Positions 15,801-24,009 of a DNA stretch of 24,335 bases are shown piece by piece. The DNA comes from Candidatus Helarchaeota ASGARD archaeon Hel_GB_B (GTDB lineage Archaea > Asgardarchaeota > Lokiarchaeia > Helarchaeales > HEL-GB-B). The notes under the pieces were generated by a model, which worked only from the letters and a program-made list of their open reading frames with translations, made no database searches and had not been told where the DNA came from. A program made the position numbers and the translations under genes. Where the stretch lies: positions 1 to 24,335 of the forward strand of contig SUPR01000050.1 of the NCBI GenBank assembly GCA_005191425.1. The letters run 5' to 3'. Numbering within the stretch: position 1 is the stretch's first letter; every line of letters begins with the position of its first letter.

Positions 15801-17351
15801 TTAAACTATTCTGCATGTAATTCCAATAAAAATTGGACCTCTAATATCTATTTTTTTATTTTTAGAGTTTATGAAATATCTAATTGAATCATTGATATGT
15901 AAATTTATTTCAGATGGTCTTTTTACCATTTTGATCCTGAATTTAAGCTCTTTTTGGTCATTTAATTCTTCGATTTTCCTAGCTACGAGTGCTGCTATTG
16001 AGTCTATATAGCGTATACCGGTATAAATACCATGTTGAGGTTTTTCAGCACCGGGTTTTAGACCTAAAATTTTGCCTTCATTAATCCATATTTCATTAAA
16101 TGCAGCAGGTCCCAATAACTTTACTCCTTCTTCATTTTCCCATATCATAATTTCGACTTTTTTTCCAAATATTTTACCTTTCCAAGCCACTATTTCTAAT
16201 GGTGCCATATCATCTTTATGTCGTTCTAATGTCTGAATAATTGCATTCATAATTTCTTTACCTACTTTAGTCATGGGTTCATTTTCAAAACATATTCCCT
16301 CTGCAATTTCTTGGTCACTAAAAATTATATCTTTATAAAAATAGGGATAAACTAAATTTCTGATGTCGTCTTCTTTTTCTTGGATCATTAGAAACCGCTC
16401 GACTCCCATTCCAAAATTGAACACAGGAAATTGGATTGAGAATTTAGCGCATGAAACTGGAGAGTAAAATCCGCCATCACCAATTTCTAGCCAATTATTA
16501 GTAATGGGGTGTTTGATAAATACTTCAAATTCCATTTGAGGTGCATAATATTTGGATGTTGCTTTTTTAATTTCAAATTTAACGTCCTTATATCCAAATT
16601 TTTCGAGGATATTTTTTGTAATCCCCATACCATCTTCTAAAGTTATTTCATCATGCATAATAACGCAAGATATTGTATTGGAGGTATAAAGATGTGTTTT
16701 ATCTAAATTCTGCTCTCTCCGAAATTTAGGACCGATATGAAATAATTGTATGGGTAATTCTTTTTTACCCTGTAAGGCTGATAAGACAGGAAACCATAGT
16801 GCAGTGGTATGAGATCTTAATGTTAAATTTGTAGGGATGGGCTTTAATATTTTAAATTCTGTAAATACAGAATCAACTAATTTGGTAGCATTTTCCTCTT
16901 TGATTTTTAACCTTAAAACAAGGCTCTCAATTAAATCGTCAGCTTCAATTTTTCCGAGTTTAAATTCTCTCAGTATCTTTTTAAGCTCATTTAAATCGAT
17001 TGAACTATCAATTTGACGAATCATTTGCTCTTTTTCTGCTGAAATCCCAATGTCAGGACGAGGTAGACCCGCAAGATAAAATAATCTATCCAAGATAAGC
17101 GGAGCTTCAGGCCCATACTCTCTATAAACATGAGATGCCTCAATTATCATTGGTAATACTATTTCTTCGAAACCCATTTGAATCATAATAGCCCTTGCAT
17201 TTTCAATAAACTCATAAAGGGGATGAGGTCTTCCTTTATTTATTAGTTTAAATTTTTTACCATTTTTTTCAAGATACTTTGCACTTTCGATCCATGCTTT
17301 TTCATAATCGACGTTTGCAAGTTCTAGGATTTTTTTGATATCAAATTTCAT
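15801..17351 (-). CDS. sepS: O-phosphoseryl-tRNA(Cys) synthetase (SepRS)
   Basis: YEKAW...HPL, YGPEAPLILDRLFYLAGLPRPDIG, TLRSH, FRREQ, SKYYAP, FGMGVER, GPAAFNEI, KRPSEIN. Confidence 0.95.
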   Translation of the reverse strand: MKFDIKKILELANVDYEKAWIESAKYLEKNGKKFKLINKGRPHPLYEFIENARAIMIQMGFEEIVLPMIIEASHVYREYGPEAPLILDRLFYLAGLPRPDIGISAEKEQMIRQIDSSIDLNELKKILREFKLGKIEADDLIESLVLRLKIKEENATKLVDSVFTEFKILKPIPTNLTLRSHTTALWFPVLSALQGKKELPIQLFHIGPKFRREQNLDKTHLYTSNTISCVIMHDEITLEDGMGITKNILEKFGYKDVKFEIKKATSKYYAPQMEFEVFIKHPITNNWLEIGDGGFYSPVSCAKFSIQFPVFNFGMGVERFLMIQEKEDDIRNLVYPYFYKDIIFSDQEIAEGICFENEPMTKVGKEIMNAIIQTLERHKDDMAPLEIVAWKGKIFGKKVEIMIWENEEGVKLLGPAAFNEIWINEGKILGLKPGAEKPQHGIYTGIRYIDSIAALVARKIEELNDQKELKFRIKMVKRPSEINLHINDSIRYFINSKNKKIDIRGPIFIGITCRIV

Positions 17352-17357
17352 TTTATT

Positions 17358-17984
17358 TCACTCATTTTTATCTTCAGAATTTTTATATTCAATAGAAAAA
17401 ATATGACTACTATCTAAGTTGCTGATTTCCTCATCAGTTAAAGTTTCTTCCGTTAAGTTTTTTTCACTAATTATTTTGGAAACCCCGAGTGGGTCCTCAA
17501 TTATTAATTTAAGTGGTGTCAGACCGTTTAATACATTCATTAAAAAATCTAGTTTTTTGGTAATTTTTTTCATCTCTTTTGGAGAATCAGAACTTCTCTT
17601 CATCATAATAAGTACAGATTTAATTCTCAATAAGATGCCCTCAACATTTGTTATAAATCCTTCGGATGCTGGTCCTGGAGTAATATCTATATCTAATTCG
17701 GGTATTTTGATAGTACAACTGGCACCTTTTATAATTTTTGCATTTAGGTCATTTTGTGTTTTAATTTGTAAAATGTATCGTTTTGGAGTTTTTGCTTCTA
17801 GATTATAAATATCATTAAATTTATAATTACAATCATTACAGACTACGGTTAAAAGTAAAATTCTACCATAATAAGGTATATTTTTTATTTCCTTTAATAC
17901 ACTTACGTTATCTGATTTACAAACAGGACAGCTAATTTTAAAAATTATATTACCATTTTCGCCGAAATTTGACATTAAATTCAC
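17358..17984 (-). CDS. Archaeal ZPR1-related zinc-finger protein
   Basis: CPVC...IPYYG...CNDCNYK, DLNAKIIKG, IPELDIDITPGPASEGFITNVEGIL, LIIEDPLGVS. Confidence 0.93.
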   Translation of the reverse strand: MNLMSNFGENGNIIFKISCPVCKSDNVSVLKEIKNIPYYGRILLLTVVCNDCNYKFNDIYNLEAKTPKRYILQIKTQNDLNAKIIKGASCTIKIPELDIDITPGPASEGFITNVEGILLRIKSVLIMMKRSSDSPKEMKKITKKLDFLMNVLNGLTPLKLIIEDPLGVSKIISEKNLTEETLTDEEISNLDSSHIFSIEYKNSEDKNE

Positions 17985-18615: not shown

Positions 18616-19167
18616 TCAGATAACAAAATTAATTTGTTCTTTTCCCCCAATAACCTGGTCTTTGTTAGCCCAGAAAATTATATGATTCCCCATTATTTCA
18701 TATAGCATTTTGGTATCTATTCTTATTATTCTAGTGTTTTCAGGAAATGACCAGATTGACCTACAATTATATTCTAATTTTTCTTCGGGAGTGATAGCCT
18801 TATAGATATTAAGCCCTTTTTTAAATTTGCCGGAAAATTCAATGACCCATGTAATAAAGGGCATGGTATCAACCTCACCCCTAAAACCGATATCGATGAG
18901 TTTAACTTCTGGGTAAATTTGTTGTTCATTAATTATATTGGTCTCCTCATTTAGGAATATTTGCATATTCGTAGATAATTTTGTCAACTCTCTATCAAGC
19001 TCTTTTTCATTTGATATCAAATTCTTGTAGTAACACTCAGGGTCATAGTAATCGAACTGTAGAATTTGTTTGATAACACCACTTTTTGAGCCACAGAAGA
19101 ACGTTTGAGCAAACAATGGTCTGACATTATCATTCACTTGTTCCATAATGATTACTATCATCTTCAA
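18616..19167 (-). CDS. Conserved archaeal hypothetical protein
   Basis: 183-aa ORF with globular beta-rich composition (FDYYDP, NMQIFLNEE, WSFP). The true start is probably downstream of the TTG at 19167. Confidence 0.75.
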   Translation of the reverse strand: MKMIVIIMEQVNDNVRPLFAQTFFCGSKSGVIKQILQFDYYDPECYYKNLISNEKELDRELTKLSTNMQIFLNEETNIINEQQIYPEVKLIDIGFRGEVDTMPFITWVIEFSGKFKKGLNIYKAITPEEKLEYNCRSIWSFPENTRIIRIDTKMLYEIMGNHIIFWANKDQVIGGKEQINFVI

Positions 19168-19559
19168 TTTAAAATATATTTCCTAAAAATCGAATTATCA
19201 AACTGGTCGAACATTTTGGGATGGAAGTTAAAATTATCAACTATTTTTGAAAAATAAATATTTATTAAAAAAATTAGATATGAATAATTGAAAAAAATAT
19301 TTTAAGACCGTAATTTTTATTTTTTAATTGGACAAATATTCCTTTTTTTTTTCTTGCAGGTCTATTATAATTTGGCAACAATCTAAAATGACCTGAAGCA
19401 ATGAATAATGATTAAAAAGTTAGTGATGATAAATATGAGATTAATTTTTTATTACAGAAAAATTTAAATAAAATCTAAATATATTTTTTAAAAATAATTT
19501 AAGAACAAAAAATAGTATCGAATTAAAAGGTACACAACAATAAGAAGGATTGCAATAAA

Positions 19560-19658
19560 ATGAATAAAAATTTTGTAAAAGAATTGGATAAATCATTACT
19601 TTTAAATCAGATAGTAGTCCTTCTTCTTGTTGTAATAATTATTCTTCTTTTAATCTAA
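19560..19658 (+). CDS. Unannotated small ORF MNKNFVKELDKSLLLNQIVVLLLVVIIILLLI (32 aa): candidate Ile/Leu/Val leader peptide or small membrane peptide
   Basis: ATG 19560 to TAA 19656-19658, with purine-rich AAGAAGGA 10 nt upstream. The last 15 codons are exclusively I/L/V. Confidence 0.55.
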   Translation: MNKNFVKELDKSLLLNQIVVLLLVVIIILLLI

Positions 19659-19660
19659 TT

Positions 19661-19689
19661 GCCCCGGCGTTATTTAACGTTGACGGGGC
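19661..19689 (+). promoter_or_regulatory. GC-rich RNA hairpin between the small ORF and porG
   Basis: GCCCCG (19661-66) pairs with CGGGGC (19684-89). Inner GCGTT/AACGT, loop ATTT, bulge TGA. It is the only GC-rich island in a very AT-rich intergenic region. Confidence 0.7.
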
Positions 19690-19734
19690 GTTGGTTAGGT
19701 TTCTTTTAAAATATATTTAAAAATATTGATAAAA

Positions 19735-19740
19735 GGAGGT
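19735..19740 (+). promoter_or_regulatory. Shine-Dalgarno GGAGGT of porG
   Basis: Lies 6 nt before the in-frame TTG at 19747. Confidence 0.75.
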
Positions 19741-19746
19741 AACTGC

Positions 19747-20334
19747 TTGGCAAATGAACGGATCTATGAAATAAGATGGCATGGGCGTGGTGGTCAAGGT
19801 ACTGTCACTGCGGCTAATATAGTTTCAGAAACAGCATTTAATGATGGTTATCTTGGAGTCCAGTCCATACCTTTAATTGGAGCTGAGCGGCGAGGTTCAG
19901 CTTTAACTGTATTTTCAAGGCTATCAAAAAAGCCTATAAATTTAATAAGTCAAATCTATGAACCAGATATTGTCGTATGTATTGACCCTAGCCTTTTTAA
20001 AAAAAATAAAGAGATGGTCGTTTCCGGTATTAAAGATAAAGGTACATTAATTGTTAACACAGTTTCTCAACCTGACGAAATCACCATTGAAAATAAATCA
20101 ATAAAAATTTGTACTGTTGATGCTTCAGGTATTTCAGTTAAGTTGGGACTTCATATTGGTGGTAGTGTTGTTGTGAATTCGCCTATGTTAGGTGCATTCA
20201 TTCGTGGGACAGGACTCATTAAATTAGACACGTTAATAAAAGTTCTTGAGAAGAAATGGAAAGGTGAATGGGGACAAAAGAATATTGAAGCAATTAAAAA
20301 AGCATATGATGAATTAAAAATTAAGGAGGCATAA
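19747..20334 (+). CDS. porG: 2-oxoacid:ferredoxin oxidoreductase gamma subunit (POR/VOR)
   Basis: EIRWHGRGGQGTVT, GAERRGS, IYEPDIVV, NSPMLGA. The start was moved from 19726 to TTG 19747 because of the SD. Confidence 0.93.
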   Translation: MANERIYEIRWHGRGGQGTVTAANIVSETAFNDGYLGVQSIPLIGAERRGSALTVFSRLSKKPINLISQIYEPDIVVCIDPSLFKKNKEMVVSGIKDKGTLIVNTVSQPDEITIENKSIKICTVDASGISVKLGLHIGGSVVVNSPMLGAFIRGTGLIKLDTLIKVLEKKWKGEWGQKNIEAIKKAYDELKIKEA

Positions 20335-20337
20335 TTT

Positions 20338-20649
20338 TTGGAAAAAAATAAGTATAAACCTTGGAGATCAATCCCAGATGATATAAGATTTGAAGATTTG
20401 CCGACCTGTCCGCTTGCTATTTCAGATAAAGGTAGTATTGGTAATACAGGAGAATGGAGGACATTCAGGCCAGTAATAAACAAAGAGAAATGTACTAAAT
20501 GTATGACTTGTTGGACTTATTGCCCTGAGGGAGTTATTTATGAAGATAATGATGAGCTGTTTATAGATTATACGTATTGTAAAGGGTGTTTAATTTGTTA
20601 CAGTGAATGTCCAGTTAATGCAATTGAAAAAGTGAGGGAGGAAATATAA
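20338..20649 (+). CDS. porD: 2-oxoacid:ferredoxin oxidoreductase delta subunit (2x[4Fe-4S])
   Basis: TGEWRTFRPVI, CTKCMTCWTYCP, CKGCLICYSECP. SD AGGAGG. Confidence 0.94.
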   Translation: MEKNKYKPWRSIPDDIRFEDLPTCPLAISDKGSIGNTGEWRTFRPVINKEKCTKCMTCWTYCPEGVIYEDNDELFIDYTYCKGCLICYSECPVNAIEKVREEI

Positions 20650-21894
20650 ATGAAGGAGCATCTTAAAGAATCTGTAAAAATTATATCTGGGAACAGTGTA
20701 GCAGCTTGGGCTGCAAGATATGCAAGAGTCCAAGTTATTTCAGCCTATCCAATAACGCCGCAGACTACTATTGTTGAAAAATTATCAGATTTTGTTGACT
20801 CAGAGGGCTGGGACTGCCAGTATATGAGGGTAGAAAGTGAGCACAGTGTTATGGCATTCCTTATAGGCGCAAGTTTTGCAGGAACGAGGACCTTTAGTGC
20901 TACAAGCGGTCAAGGACTTTTCTACATGAATGAGATGTTGCATTGGGCTGCGCCTTCAAGACTACCTATCGTATTAACTGTTGCAAATAGAGGAGTAGCA
21001 CCAGGGTGGAACATTTGGGCAGACCATCAAGATGTAATTGCGTCCCGAGATACTGGGTGGTTGATTCTGTTCGCTTCGTCACACCAAGACATTTTCGATA
21101 CAATTATTCAAGCTTATAGAATTGCAGAAGACCCGCGCGTGTATCTACCAATAATGGTATGTTTAGAAGGATTTCAGCTCAGTCATACAATTGAACCAGT
21201 TTATTTTCCAGACCAATCACTTGTAGATGAATTTCTGCTCGATTTACCCAAGAATGGTTGGCCACATACTTTTTTAGACCCAAATAGACCGATTACTTTT
21301 GGAAGTCTTCAAATTCCAGGTGGTAAAGTTGCAACGCCATCTTCAATGTATTTTGAATTTAGAGCGAGTATAGAAAAGGCTATGCTTAATGCTAGGACAG
21401 TCATAAAGGAAGCGGCTCAAGATTTCAAAAAGATTTTTGGTCGCGATACAGGAGATTTAATTCAAAAATATAAATGTGATGATGCAGAAGCTGTCATTGT
21501 ATGTGCTGGCAATATGGCTAGACAAGCTATAGCAGCTGTTGATAAATTAAGAAGTGAAGGTTTAAATGTAGGAGCTGTCAAGTTAAGGTCGTATAAACCA
21601 TTTCCAATTCAAGAATTTCAAGAACTTGCAAATAATGGAGTTAAGGGATTTGGAGTCTTGGAACGTAATATGGCATTCAGTTTGAACGGGGGCGCTGCAT
21701 CCGTTGACTTAAAATCTGCTTTTTATGATATGGAACCTAGTCCTTATGTGGTCCCTTTTATCGGTGGTGTCGGTGGAAGAGATATTACAATGGATGACCA
21801 GTGTAATATCTTGAAAAGAGTATTAAATGTAATTAAAAATAAGGAACGAAATGTTAAAGTAGAATATATTAACTTTCATGGGAGGTTTGAATAA
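20650..21894 (+). CDS. porA: 2-oxoacid:ferredoxin oxidoreductase alpha subunit
   Basis: AYPITPQT, VESEHS, SATSGQG, NRG, RDTGW. Its ATG abuts the porD stop (TAAATG). Confidence 0.94.
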   Translation: MKEHLKESVKIISGNSVAAWAARYARVQVISAYPITPQTTIVEKLSDFVDSEGWDCQYMRVESEHSVMAFLIGASFAGTRTFSATSGQGLFYMNEMLHWAAPSRLPIVLTVANRGVAPGWNIWADHQDVIASRDTGWLILFASSHQDIFDTIIQAYRIAEDPRVYLPIMVCLEGFQLSHTIEPVYFPDQSLVDEFLLDLPKNGWPHTFLDPNRPITFGSLQIPGGKVATPSSMYFEFRASIEKAMLNARTVIKEAAQDFKKIFGRDTGDLIQKYKCDDAEAVIVCAGNMARQAIAAVDKLRSEGLNVGAVKLRSYKPFPIQEFQELANNGVKGFGVLERNMAFSLNGGAASVDLKSAFYDMEPSPYVVPFIGGVGGRDITMDDQCNILKRVLNVIKNKERNVKVEYINFHGRFE

Positions 21895-21895
21895 A

Positions 21896-22801
21896 ATGTC
21901 TTTTAAGAAAATAGCAAAAGAAGCACCTAAAGAATATTTTTTACCAGGAAATTCTGCATGTGCTGGTTGTGGTCTTGAACTTAGTTTAAGATGGGCACTT
22001 AAAGCTCTTGGTCAAAAAACTATTATGGTAGCTCCAGCATCTTGTACTAATGTAATTGTGGGACTATATCCAAAAGGCGCACCTGCAATCCCATTTACTA
22101 ATATGGCATTCGCTGCAGGTTGCTCTTCAGCTTCGGGAATTCGTACAGGACTTCAAGCTCGAGGTATCAATGATGTTACGGTCGTTTGCTGGTCGGGAGA
22201 TGGCGGTGCATTTGATATTGGACTTCAATCCGCTAGCGGGGCTGCTGAACGAAATGATGATATTCTATATATTTGTTATGATAATGAAGCATATATGAAT
22301 ACCGGTACCCAGAGGTCTGGTGGGACTCCCTATGGAGCATGGACTACTACTACTCCCGAAGGAAAAAGACAGCATAAAAAAGACCTTGCAGGAATTTTTG
22401 CATCTCATAATATCCCCTATGTTGCTACTGCCTCTGTTGGGTATCCAATTGATCTATATAACAAAGTCAAAAAAGCAAAAAACATCAAGGGATTTAAATT
22501 CATTCACATTTTTGCGCCGTGTCCACCAGGCTGGAGATTTGAAACTGAAAATATGATTAAGGTCGCAAAAAATGCAGTTGCATCTGGTATTTGGGTACTT
22601 TTTGAGATTGAACATGGTAAAAAAACATTATCTGCACCTTCTGAAAAGTATAGAGATAAGTCTAAGAGAATTCCATTAAAAGAATACCTTCAATTACAAG
22701 GTAGGTTTAGTAAAATGACAGACAAAGAGATTAACGAGTTACAACGTTGGATTGATAATTATTGGGAACATTTAGAAAAAGAATTGGCATGTTTTGGTTA
22801 A
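21896..22801 (+). CDS. porB: 2-oxoacid:ferredoxin oxidoreductase beta subunit (TPP-binding)
   Basis: ACAGCG, SGDGG...YDNEAYMNTG TPP motif, APCPPGW. ATG 21896 with SD GGAGGT at 21881-86 is preferred over 21878. Confidence 0.94.
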   Translation: MSFKKIAKEAPKEYFLPGNSACAGCGLELSLRWALKALGQKTIMVAPASCTNVIVGLYPKGAPAIPFTNMAFAAGCSSASGIRTGLQARGINDVTVVCWSGDGGAFDIGLQSASGAAERNDDILYICYDNEAYMNTGTQRSGGTPYGAWTTTTPEGKRQHKKDLAGIFASHNIPYVATASVGYPIDLYNKVKKAKNIKGFKFIHIFAPCPPGWRFETENMIKVAKNAVASGIWVLFEIEHGKKTLSAPSEKYRDKSKRIPLKEYLQLQGRFSKMTDKEINELQRWIDNYWEHLEKELACFG

Positions 22802-22815
22802 CAAATTGATTTTTT

Positions 22816-24009
22816 TTAATTATCTTCTAATTGGTCCATAATTTTTTTCCTTTTTTCTTTCATTTCCAGAATGAAGTTTCTTACTTCACCCTCCGGAAAT
22901 AACGATGCAGTTTCTTCCATAGCCCTTAATATTCGCTCTTCATTACTCAATTCAGGTTCTACGATCTTTTCTTTTTCTATTACTTTATTTTCTATGAGTT
23001 TTTTAGGAATTTGAGGTATCCTTGGCGAATTTTTGTTAATTTCAGCTTCGTGTATTTCATCTTTAACTGGACTTGGTGCAACTTCTTCGGGTTTGTTTAA
23101 CAATTCTTTTAATTTTGTTTGTAAATTTTGATTATTGACTTCAATTTGACCTTTTACTTTTTGATGAGAACTTTCATCCATTTTAGGTTCTAAAGTGTTA
23201 TTTTCCGTCTGATTGTCAGGAGAAGTAATTTTTTCATTTTTAGTATCACCGACTAATGCAATTTCGTTTATTAGCTCATCAAGATTTTGTATTTTTAAAT
23301 TGCTATTTTCAATCGAGACTTTATTACCTTCAGGCGTGGTTTGTATTTCAGTACTATTTTTAGTATCAATCTGATTTTGTTGCGGTTTAATTTGGTCTGT
23401 TTGAACCTTTAACATATCTGGAAATGGGATTTCCTTTATTGCATCAATTTTAAGTACATCTTCTACCTTAATTGGTTGTGGTAATATATTTTGCTTTTTA
23501 GAAGATATATTATTAACTTCACCTAATGAATCATTTGTTTTTTCAACTATTTTATCTTTTACTACTTCAATTTCATTATTAACATTATCTATTCCATTAA
23601 TTTGAACATCTTTTGATGAAGATTCCTCTTCCATAGATTTAGTGACTTCCTCAAGTTCTTCGACAATACTTTTAGTCCCATGAAACTCAATATCATCTAA
23701 TTTTTCGTTTAAATTAGTATTTTCAAGGACATTATCGGTAAATGCCACTTTATTTAATATTTTTTTATCTCGGTCAAATAACATCGAATCCACTGAAATA
23801 AAAAACTTATTTAAATCATTCCATTCTTCTTGGGTAAGCGGAATAGAAATAATATTTTCTTCCTTTTCCACGGAAAATTCGATTGTAATATCTTGGTCTG
23901 CCTCTTCAATACTTTTAATAGTAATTGCTATTTCTTTTCCCTTTTTCTTCTTAAACATTTTTTCAATTCTGCGTATTTCCTCCCAAGGTTTCTGATTTTT
24001 TGATGACAT
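22816..24009 (-). CDS. Hypothetical protein: small N- and C-terminal folded domains joined by a long acidic/Asn-Gln-Pro-rich low-complexity linker
   Basis: 397-aa ORF. The central ~250 aa are E/N/Q/K/P-rich and depleted of aromatic residues. Confidence 0.82.
   Translation of the reverse strand: MSSKNQKPWEEIRRIEKMFKKKKGKEIAITIKSIEEADQDITIEFSVEKEENIISIPLTQEEWNDLNKFFISVDSMLFDRDKKILNKVAFTDNVLENTNLNEKLDDIEFHGTKSIVEELEEVTKSMEEESSSKDVQINGIDNVNNEIEVVKDKIVEKTNDSLGEVNNISSKKQNILPQPIKVEDVLKIDAIKEIPFPDMLKVQTDQIKPQQNQIDTKNSTEIQTTPEGNKVSIENSNLKIQNLDELINEIALVGDTKNEKITSPDNQTENNTLEPKMDESSHQKVKGQIEVNNQNLQTKLKELLNKPEEVAPSPVKDEIHEAEINKNSPRIPQIPKKLIENKVIEKEKIVEPELSNEERILRAMEETASLFPEGEVRNFILEMKEKRKKIMDQLEDN

Follow-up and report, generated by a model that had tools for sequence, protein, structure and literature searches.

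Leader-peptide attenuation is a textbook bacterial mechanism. Upstream of the ilvGMEDA (ilvL), ilvBN (ivbL) and leu (leuL) operons, an open reading frame (ORF) of ~30 codons, dense in Ile, Leu and Val codons, precedes genes of branched-chain metabolism, and RNA helices overlap or abut this ORF so that the position of the ribosome decides which helix forms. We describe here a leader of similar layout from an Asgard archaeon, Candidatus Helarchaeota archaeon Hel_GB_B (order Helarchaeales, class Lokiarchaeia; assembly GCA_005191425.1, contig SUPR01000050.1; the 24,335-nt stretch that was analyzed is called the window below). Our analysis uncovered a conserved 5' leader of ~250 nt, made of a small ORF ending in Ile/Leu/Val codons, a long-range helix (A:A') and a GC-rich hairpin (hairpin B), in front of a POR/VOR-type 2-oxoacid:ferredoxin oxidoreductase operon. 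An initial annotation of the window had placed a candidate branched-chain amino-acid attenuator here and knew of no archaeal example; our literature searches likewise found no described archaeal leader-peptide attenuator.

The likeness to ilvL, ivbL and leuL extends to the multivalent character of ilvL, as the Asgard leader also carries codons for all three amino acids. It differs from these leaders in its archaeal host, in the POR/VOR-family operon that stands in the place of biosynthetic ilv or leu genes, and in an Ile/Leu/Val run that reaches the stop codon. Only a single hairpin at the stop is conserved, with no universal terminator/anti-terminator pair and no terminator made of a hairpin plus a U-run. 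No sequence or Rfam relationship links the two groups, and the logic is likely inverted, with the operon on when amino acids are plentiful. Since two defining features, mutually exclusive terminator and anti-terminator helices and an intrinsic terminator, were not found and a sequence relationship is lacking, the Asgard leader is not filed here as a member of the classical attenuators.

Closest in working principle to the likely read-out of the Asgard leader are pyrBI and tnaC of Escherichia coli. At pyrBI, a ribosome that keeps up with the polymerase prevents downstream termination, and UTP is sensed through polymerase pausing. At tnaC, termination is prevented by a ribosome at the leader stop, where TnaC senses free Trp in the ribosome and blocks Rho; tna is a catabolic operon, turned on by amino-acid abundance. 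The presumed signal of the Asgard leader is a different one, namely tRNA charging over a long Ile/Leu/Val run, and the terminating factor, if any, would be FttA/aCPSF1.

A likeness of another kind is found with Hok, TisB and Ibs of type I toxin-antitoxin systems, which are very hydrophobic peptides of 30-40 residues whose mRNA forms a long-range fold over the ribosome-binding region. The Asgard peptide is similar in size and hydrophobicity, and its mRNA has a comparable long-range fold. However, the Asgard element is single-copy and syntenic with a metabolic operon in two orders, no antisense RNA was seen, and its N-terminal half is neutral while the tail is constrained at the codon level. Finally, cognate-codon-rich upstream ORFs control operons in the actinobacterial ilvB leaders and the mycobacterial polycysteine short-ORF attenuators (PMC11857589, PMC10272879, bioRxiv 10.1101/834739). 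Like the Asgard leader, these are found in lineages where the enterobacterial terminator logic does not fully apply, but they are bacterial, serve biosynthetic operons and use other structures, and none combines a stop-adjacent hairpin with a helix enclosing the ORF start.

The small ORF and its RNA helices

The leader and the operon behind it have the following parts in the window.

19456-19470 (+): predicted BRE/TATA-like promoter (transcription factor B recognition element and TATA box; AGAAAAA plus TTTAAATA), ~95 nt 5' of the small ORF
19534-19549 (+): strand A (5') of the long-range helix, rich in purines and containing the Shine-Dalgarno (SD)-like AAGGA of the small ORF
19560-19658 (+): leader ORF of 32 codons, ATG to TAA, with the stop codon at 19656-58
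19611-19655 (+): run of 15 consecutive Ile/Leu/Val codons up to the stop, read from the sequence
19618-19633 (+): strand A' (3') of the long-range helix, within the Ile/Leu/Val codons, from duplex tests and RNAalifold
19661-19689 (+): GC-rich hairpin B, 2 nt past the stop, with GCCCCG (19661-66) opposite CGGGGC (19684-89)
19700-19707 (+): U-rich tract (TTTCTTTT; UUUCUUUU), 10 nt past hairpin B, read from the sequence
19735-19740 (+): porG SD sequence GGAGGT, 6 nt 5' of the TTG start, kept in family f1
19747-22801 (+): porG-porD-porA-porB operon, from Pfam and NCBIfam, with the TTG start of porG at 19747

The 32-codon ORF of the initial annotation was confirmed, with Ile, Leu or Val at 18 of the last 20 residues and at all of the last 15, as was the share of CTT among its Leu codons (6 of 10). 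The statement that it has no Phe holds for the tail and not for the whole ORF, in which codon 5 is TTT. Runs of at least 15 Ile/Leu/Val residues are rare in the host genome (3.5 Mb, 28% GC, 36% T; the assembly is 93.7% complete in 182 contigs): just two were found in all six frames, one of them the leader tail. The other (contig C65, ~233-283, minus strand) is a 17-residue (IIL)n-like run in a startless frame of 20 codons and looks like simple-repeat DNA.

The tail was then compared with a membrane-like set, the 1648 most hydrophobic 18-mers from long ORFs of the same genome. Its last 18 residues include 16 Ile/Leu/Val, while the membrane-like segments peak at 15, a value reached twice among the 1648. 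Across 23 leaders, the Ile/Leu/Val content of the last 18 residues was 72-94%, with all three amino acids present in every leader. Their pooled composition (Leu 36%, Val 25%, Ile 23%, Phe 1.2%) departs from that of the membrane-like set (Ile 27%, Leu 18%, Val 8%, Phe 11.6%), Phe being about tenfold lower and Val threefold higher, and Phe, Ala, Gly and Met are avoided. Since the codons used are no richer in pyrimidines than those for Phe, the avoidance of Phe is no by-product of the helix strand.

Among 25 tabulated leaders, all have an open frame of 31-38 codons at the same place with the ATG kept, and the alternative frames of the same stretch hold a mean of 6.2 and 1.3 stops. The N-terminal half is nearly unconstrained (non-synonymous differences affect 11-14 of 16 codons in family f2, for example). 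Where the tail keeps a residue, ~86% of the codons are identical too; the corresponding share for porG in these genome pairs is 45-60%. CTT makes up 71% of the Leu codons of Helarchaeales tails against 17% in the long ORFs of the genome. The combination of an open frame, a free N-terminal half and a tail constrained at the codon level is predicted for a translated regulatory leader and not for a functional peptide, and this pattern of selection fits a cis-acting translated leader better. Pfam searches with the leader peptide returned sub-threshold noise and the best Atlas score was 0.79, to unnamed clusters; no family was assigned. No slippery site of the frameshift type was seen by eye before hairpin B.

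The GC-rich hairpin reported 2 nt past the stop was also found (hairpin B, -16.2 kcal/mol, z -2.9). The genome holds 66 GC-rich hairpins, and only this one sits directly after a biased small ORF. In each of the nine Helarchaeales leaders a hairpin starts 0-2 nt past the stop; in those of Lokiarchaeales the gap is no more than a few nt. Upstream, 15 of the 16 bases of 19534-19549 pair with 19618-19633 to form helix A:A'; the domain that it closes (19530-19640) has a predicted energy of -26.7 kcal/mol (z -4.6), and the duplex is better than shuffles in all nine Helarchaeales leaders. Strand A' spans 5-7 of the 15-20 Ile/Leu/Val codons.

Both helices were recovered independently by RNAalifold from the Helarchaeales alignment, where 88.9% of cells pair compared with 42-64% when the partners are slid. 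The pairs covary, with 11 of 18 changed on both sides, a result matched by none of 500 shuffles. The same two helices are 84.9% paired in Lokiarchaeales (43-55% in slid controls), where covariation is modest because the sequences are close to each other. The two orders share this architecture even though every strand of the two helices is wholly different in sequence. Rfam gave no family at gathering score and only chance-level matches at a permissive E-value, and a tRNA search found none. A K-turn in the internal loop of hairpin B was considered and rejected, since the loop is not conserved.

In three leaders of Helarchaeales family f2 (L006, L007 and L008), a diverged second copy of the hairpin sequence follows the hairpin within 0-100 nt past the stop. 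As a result, the minimum free energy fold is an extended hairpin of ~95 nt (1:4 plus 2:3) that replaces the local one, with an A-run paired to a U-run at its tip. A universal partner for the 3' arm of the hairpin (segment C) was rejected, as it is significant in family f2 only, where the 3' arm can pair with a downstream copy of the 5' arm (z -2.2 to -6.1), and was proposed by RNAalifold in Lokiarchaeales without covariation.

Distribution of the leader and the enzyme behind it

When the regions before por/vor operons of relatives were searched, the short ORF with an Ile/Leu/Val run and covarying stems recurred at 26 loci, which are those of 7 Helarchaeales species genomes, 2 metagenome contigs and 17 Lokiarchaeales loci. 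An orthologous porG is present in all seven Helarchaeales species genomes searched (47-81% identity), each with a co-oriented ORF of 32-38 codons and a terminal Ile/Leu/Val run just 5' of it, and the metagenome contigs gave two further distinct versions. A covariance model built on the nine Helarchaeales leaders and run against 151 genomes of the class returned one copy per Helarchaeales genome and nothing else. The Lokiarchaeales versions were located by scanning upstream regions, not by this model; they were found in 10 of 10 genomes of genus g13, in 6 of 7 of g12 and in the one examined of g15, and are AU-rich and entirely different in primary sequence from those of Helarchaeales. The BRE/TATA-like motif is aligned and kept in 8 of 9 Helarchaeales leaders, the remaining one (G005) having a similar motif closer to the ORF, and the Lokiarchaeales leaders are likewise preceded by an equivalent motif.

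A PorG tree groups the leader-bearing Helarchaeales operons as sister to those of Lokiarchaeales, with the leaderless paralogue of the window genome outside. This tree and the presence of the leader in two orders suggest that it is probably ancestral to the class (Lokiarchaeia) and was lost several times. In genus g7 (L015-L018, L020 and L029), an Ile/Leu/Val-rich frame and a partial helix remain, with no ATG, GTG or TTG start and a weak hairpin; no such leader ORF was found in the upstream regions of genera g9 and g10. A genome-wide scan for runs of His, Trp, Cys, Thr and other codons and for stop-adjacent GC hairpins gave no other convincing leader-like ORF.

The upstream neighbor of the leader (18616-19167, minus strand) encodes a protein of 183 aa without Pfam or NCBIfam match. 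In G005 and G004 the leader is also preceded by a homologue of this gene, there in the same orientation; the gene has thus been inverted in the window genome while the leader stayed with porG.

The operon itself encodes the gamma, delta (2x[4Fe-4S]), alpha and beta (thiamine pyrophosphate, TPP) subunits, and all four ORFs were matched by both Pfam (POR, Fer4, POR_N/PFOR_II and TPP_enzyme_C) and NCBIfam. The initial annotation had tied the enzyme to branched-chain 2-oxoacids through the VOR type. PorB is in line with this link, scoring 430 bits with the VOR-beta subfamily (cut-off 405) and 380 with the PorB equivalog, under its cut-off, but the alpha subunit is ambiguous, its best NCBIfam match being PorA_Arch, under its cut-off. 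The assignment of the operon to VOR, made from such family scores, is thus only suggestive. Two more POR/VOR-like operons are present in the window genome, on contigs C50 (L164) and C128 (L165). A standard set of four subunits, with no leader, makes up one of them, and the divergent second one has a first ORF of 315 aa that matches PorG and a beta-like subunit of 372 aa.

A proposed ribosome-position sensor and its rivals

We tentatively read the leader as a sensor, by ribosome position, of the supply of branched-chain aminoacyl-tRNA, probably with a catabolic logic; on the comparative sequence evidence, this reading falls a little short of being probable. Transcription of the leader would start from the conserved upstream BRE/TATA. 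The anatomy suggests that a ribosome would load on the small ORF ahead of transcription of the Ile/Leu/Val codons and that helix A:A' would then close over the ribosome-binding region of the ORF, so that the leader would be read mostly by the first ribosome, the one coupled to RNA polymerase. By analogy with ilvL, ivbL and leuL, transit across 15-20 consecutive Ile/Leu/Val codons would depend on charged tRNA. An undelayed ribosome would reach the stop, melt the 5' arm of hairpin B and stay close behind the polymerase. A ribosome with a stop codon in its A site covers about a dozen nt downstream; with the hairpin base 0-2 nt past the stop, it could not terminate there without melting this arm. 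If the ribosome were delayed, hairpin B would stay intact and the polymerase would be uncoupled.

Expression of the operon would then be set by the state of the hairpin and by coupling. The output step might be termination by FttA/aCPSF1 on U-rich RNA that is uncoupled, processing of the RNA or a block of downstream translation. Archaeal transcription and translation are coupled, and archaeal termination relies on U-tracts bound by aCPSF1/FttA, including a Lokiarchaeota aCPSF1 orthologue, with no need for a hairpin (PMC8716108). FttA has been proposed to police this coupling by terminating polymerases without their ribosome (PMC11616081).

We favor a catabolic logic, with the operon on when Ile, Leu and Val are plentiful, because a single hairpin is conserved, at the stop and without a universal anti-terminator partner, and because the genome encodes its own ilvB-like, ilvC and ilvE-like genes. 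Such a logic needs just one hairpin invaded by an undelayed ribosome, which is all that is conserved. The opposite sign, in which the enzyme would act as a 2-oxoisovalerate synthase turned on by starvation, is possible.

The core of the initial proposal, an Ile/Leu/Val leader ORF with a stop hairpin in cis to the operon, proved conserved and covarying, but neither of the two switches proposed with it held up. An alternative helix between 19674-81 and 19687-94 does exist, but half of its pairs (4 of 8) are G-U and its -5.5 kcal/mol compares with -16.2 for hairpin B. As a switch it is weak, and by eye it is absent in a relative of the same genus and not conserved. Pairing of the last sense codons (19643-52) with the porG SD also exists (-9.4 kcal/mol), but an equally good pairing with these codons is formed by 26% of the 294 further SD-bearing gene starts that were compared in the genome. 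Sequestration of the porG SD by these codons is therefore within chance, and it was not recovered in folds of relatives. The U-rich tract is present as described but is not significant in a genome with 36% T, and its position varies among relatives; a role as an archaeal termination signal is possible.

Several observations weigh against the sensor. Mutually exclusive terminator and anti-terminator helices were not found, since only helix A:A' and hairpin B are universal and no alternative helix is kept across all lineages. When a ribosome was modeled at the stop, halfway along the run or near its beginning, the accessibility of the porG ribosome-binding site did not change consistently in the folds, contrary to what had been proposed. 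A scan for bacterial-type terminators found none, and hairpins are not known as drivers of archaeal termination (PMC8716108). Lokiarchaeales tails retain a conserved Gln and an "NSILLL" stretch, which could reflect a peptide function. The leader is degenerate or missing in Lokiarchaeales g7, g9 and g10 though the operon is retained, and no Ile/Leu/Val leader was found upstream of the ilvB-like and ilvC genes of the window genome. The choice between POR and VOR by NCBIfam is equally ambiguous for the leaderless paralogue and the Lokiarchaeales orthologues. Lastly, the AT-rich spacer between hairpin and porG holds TATA-like sequences, an element of this kind is conserved ~50 nt 5' of porG in family f2, and porG of Lokiarchaeales g12 and g13 has no canonical SD while the internal genes of the operon have one. 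Together, these last three observations make an internal porG promoter possible.

In the g12 and g13 operons (L174-L189; for example L162:600-640), the motif AAAGTTGG(G/A)A occurs 5-8 nt before the starts of both the small ORF and porG, and the internal genes carry a canonical SD of the GGAGGTGA type. This upstream motif may represent another type of ribosome-binding site or be bound by a regulator.

An alternative that we regard as unlikely is that the small ORF is a gene of its own. Its product would be a hydrophobic micro-protein anchored by its tail, with a single membrane helix and an N-terminus that is polar and often basic, acting together with the oxidoreductase or close to it. In that case the hairpin would act at the 3' end of this mRNA or on its stability, and the porG promoter would lie in the spacer. 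The frame is open in 25 of 25 leaders and a tail of 15-21 residues would suffice for a membrane helix, yet its composition lies outside all 1648 membrane-like segments, with Phe, Ala, Gly and Met avoided and Val up threefold, and no flanking residues follow the helix. While Lokiarchaeales N-termini are rich in Lys and Arg and the tails keep a Gln/Ser pattern, the free N-terminal half and tail synonymous sites more conserved than those of porG are the opposite of what protein-level selection gives, and the peptide matches no Pfam or Atlas family. A promoter between hairpin and porG would agree with the TATA-like sequences found there and with the SD-less porG of g12 and g13, as is usual for first genes whose leader is short or absent. 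The fixed distance from stop to hairpin (0-2 nt in Helarchaeales) speaks against a gene of its own, and hairpins are unnecessary for archaeal 3' ends (PMC8716108).

We consider it improbable that the structured RNA (A:A' and hairpin B, in some lineages the extended hairpin) is itself the functional unit, whether as a leader that binds a protein or a metabolite, as an element for processing or stability, or as a small RNA, with translation of the ORF merely opening the structure (coupling of the upstream-ORF type) and the supply of Ile, Leu and Val playing no role. Such a unit would account for the covariation of both helices, the nucleotide-level conservation of the tail and the ~95-nt extended hairpin of family f2. 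It would also account for the tail of contig L095, where Phe and Gly codons occur exactly where helix A:A' is thereby kept, and for genus g7, which keeps partial sequence without a start codon. However, since strand A' covers only 5-7 of the 15-20 Ile/Leu/Val codons, structure leaves the rest of the composition unexplained, and pyrimidine-rich strands would allow Phe and Ser codons, yet both are avoided. The frame and its ATG are kept in all 25 leaders, and no Rfam match was found.

Least of all would we expect a type I toxin-like module, that is, a small hydrophobic toxic peptide whose mRNA is silenced by a long-range fold over its ribosome-binding site: the peptide is short and very hydrophobic, and in Helarchaeales the SD-like region of the ORF lies within helix A:A', resembling the fold-back inhibition of hok- and tisB-type mRNAs. 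However, toxin loci are mobile and multi-copy, whereas this element is single-copy and always co-oriented directly upstream of the same operon in two orders; in addition, there is no evident antisense partner, and the N-terminal half is unconstrained.

The sensor of aminoacyl-tRNA supply is the reading that we prefer. Its fullest version is a tRNA-charging attenuator in Archaea, ancestral to Lokiarchaeia and catabolic, in which an undelayed ribosome would invade the hairpin, coupling would protect the transcript from FttA/aCPSF1 and a branched-chain 2-oxoacid oxidoreductase would be turned on. With all these parts taken together, we put it forward more hesitantly still than the sensor as such.

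Genomic setting and significance

Elsewhere in the window, the gene for an O-phosphoserine--tRNA ligase (SepRS, TIGR00470, 510 bits) adjoins one for a ZPR1-type zinc-finger/jelly-roll protein (15801-17351 and 17358-17984, both on the minus strand). At the other side, the gene for a 397-aa low-complexity protein rich in Glu, Lys and Asn and without Pfam match (22816-24009, minus strand) runs convergently toward the end of porB. No variants were seen when contigs from four DNA runs were compared with the locus.

The Asgard leader offers a compact (~250 nt) and conserved test object for archaeal attenuation. Its hosts belong to the prokaryotes most closely related to eukaryotes, and the leader may be present in Lokiarchaeales that are in culture. 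If the proposed sensor is true, it would tie an ambiguous POR/VOR paralogue to branched-chain amino-acid metabolism in amino-acid-fermenting Asgard archaea.

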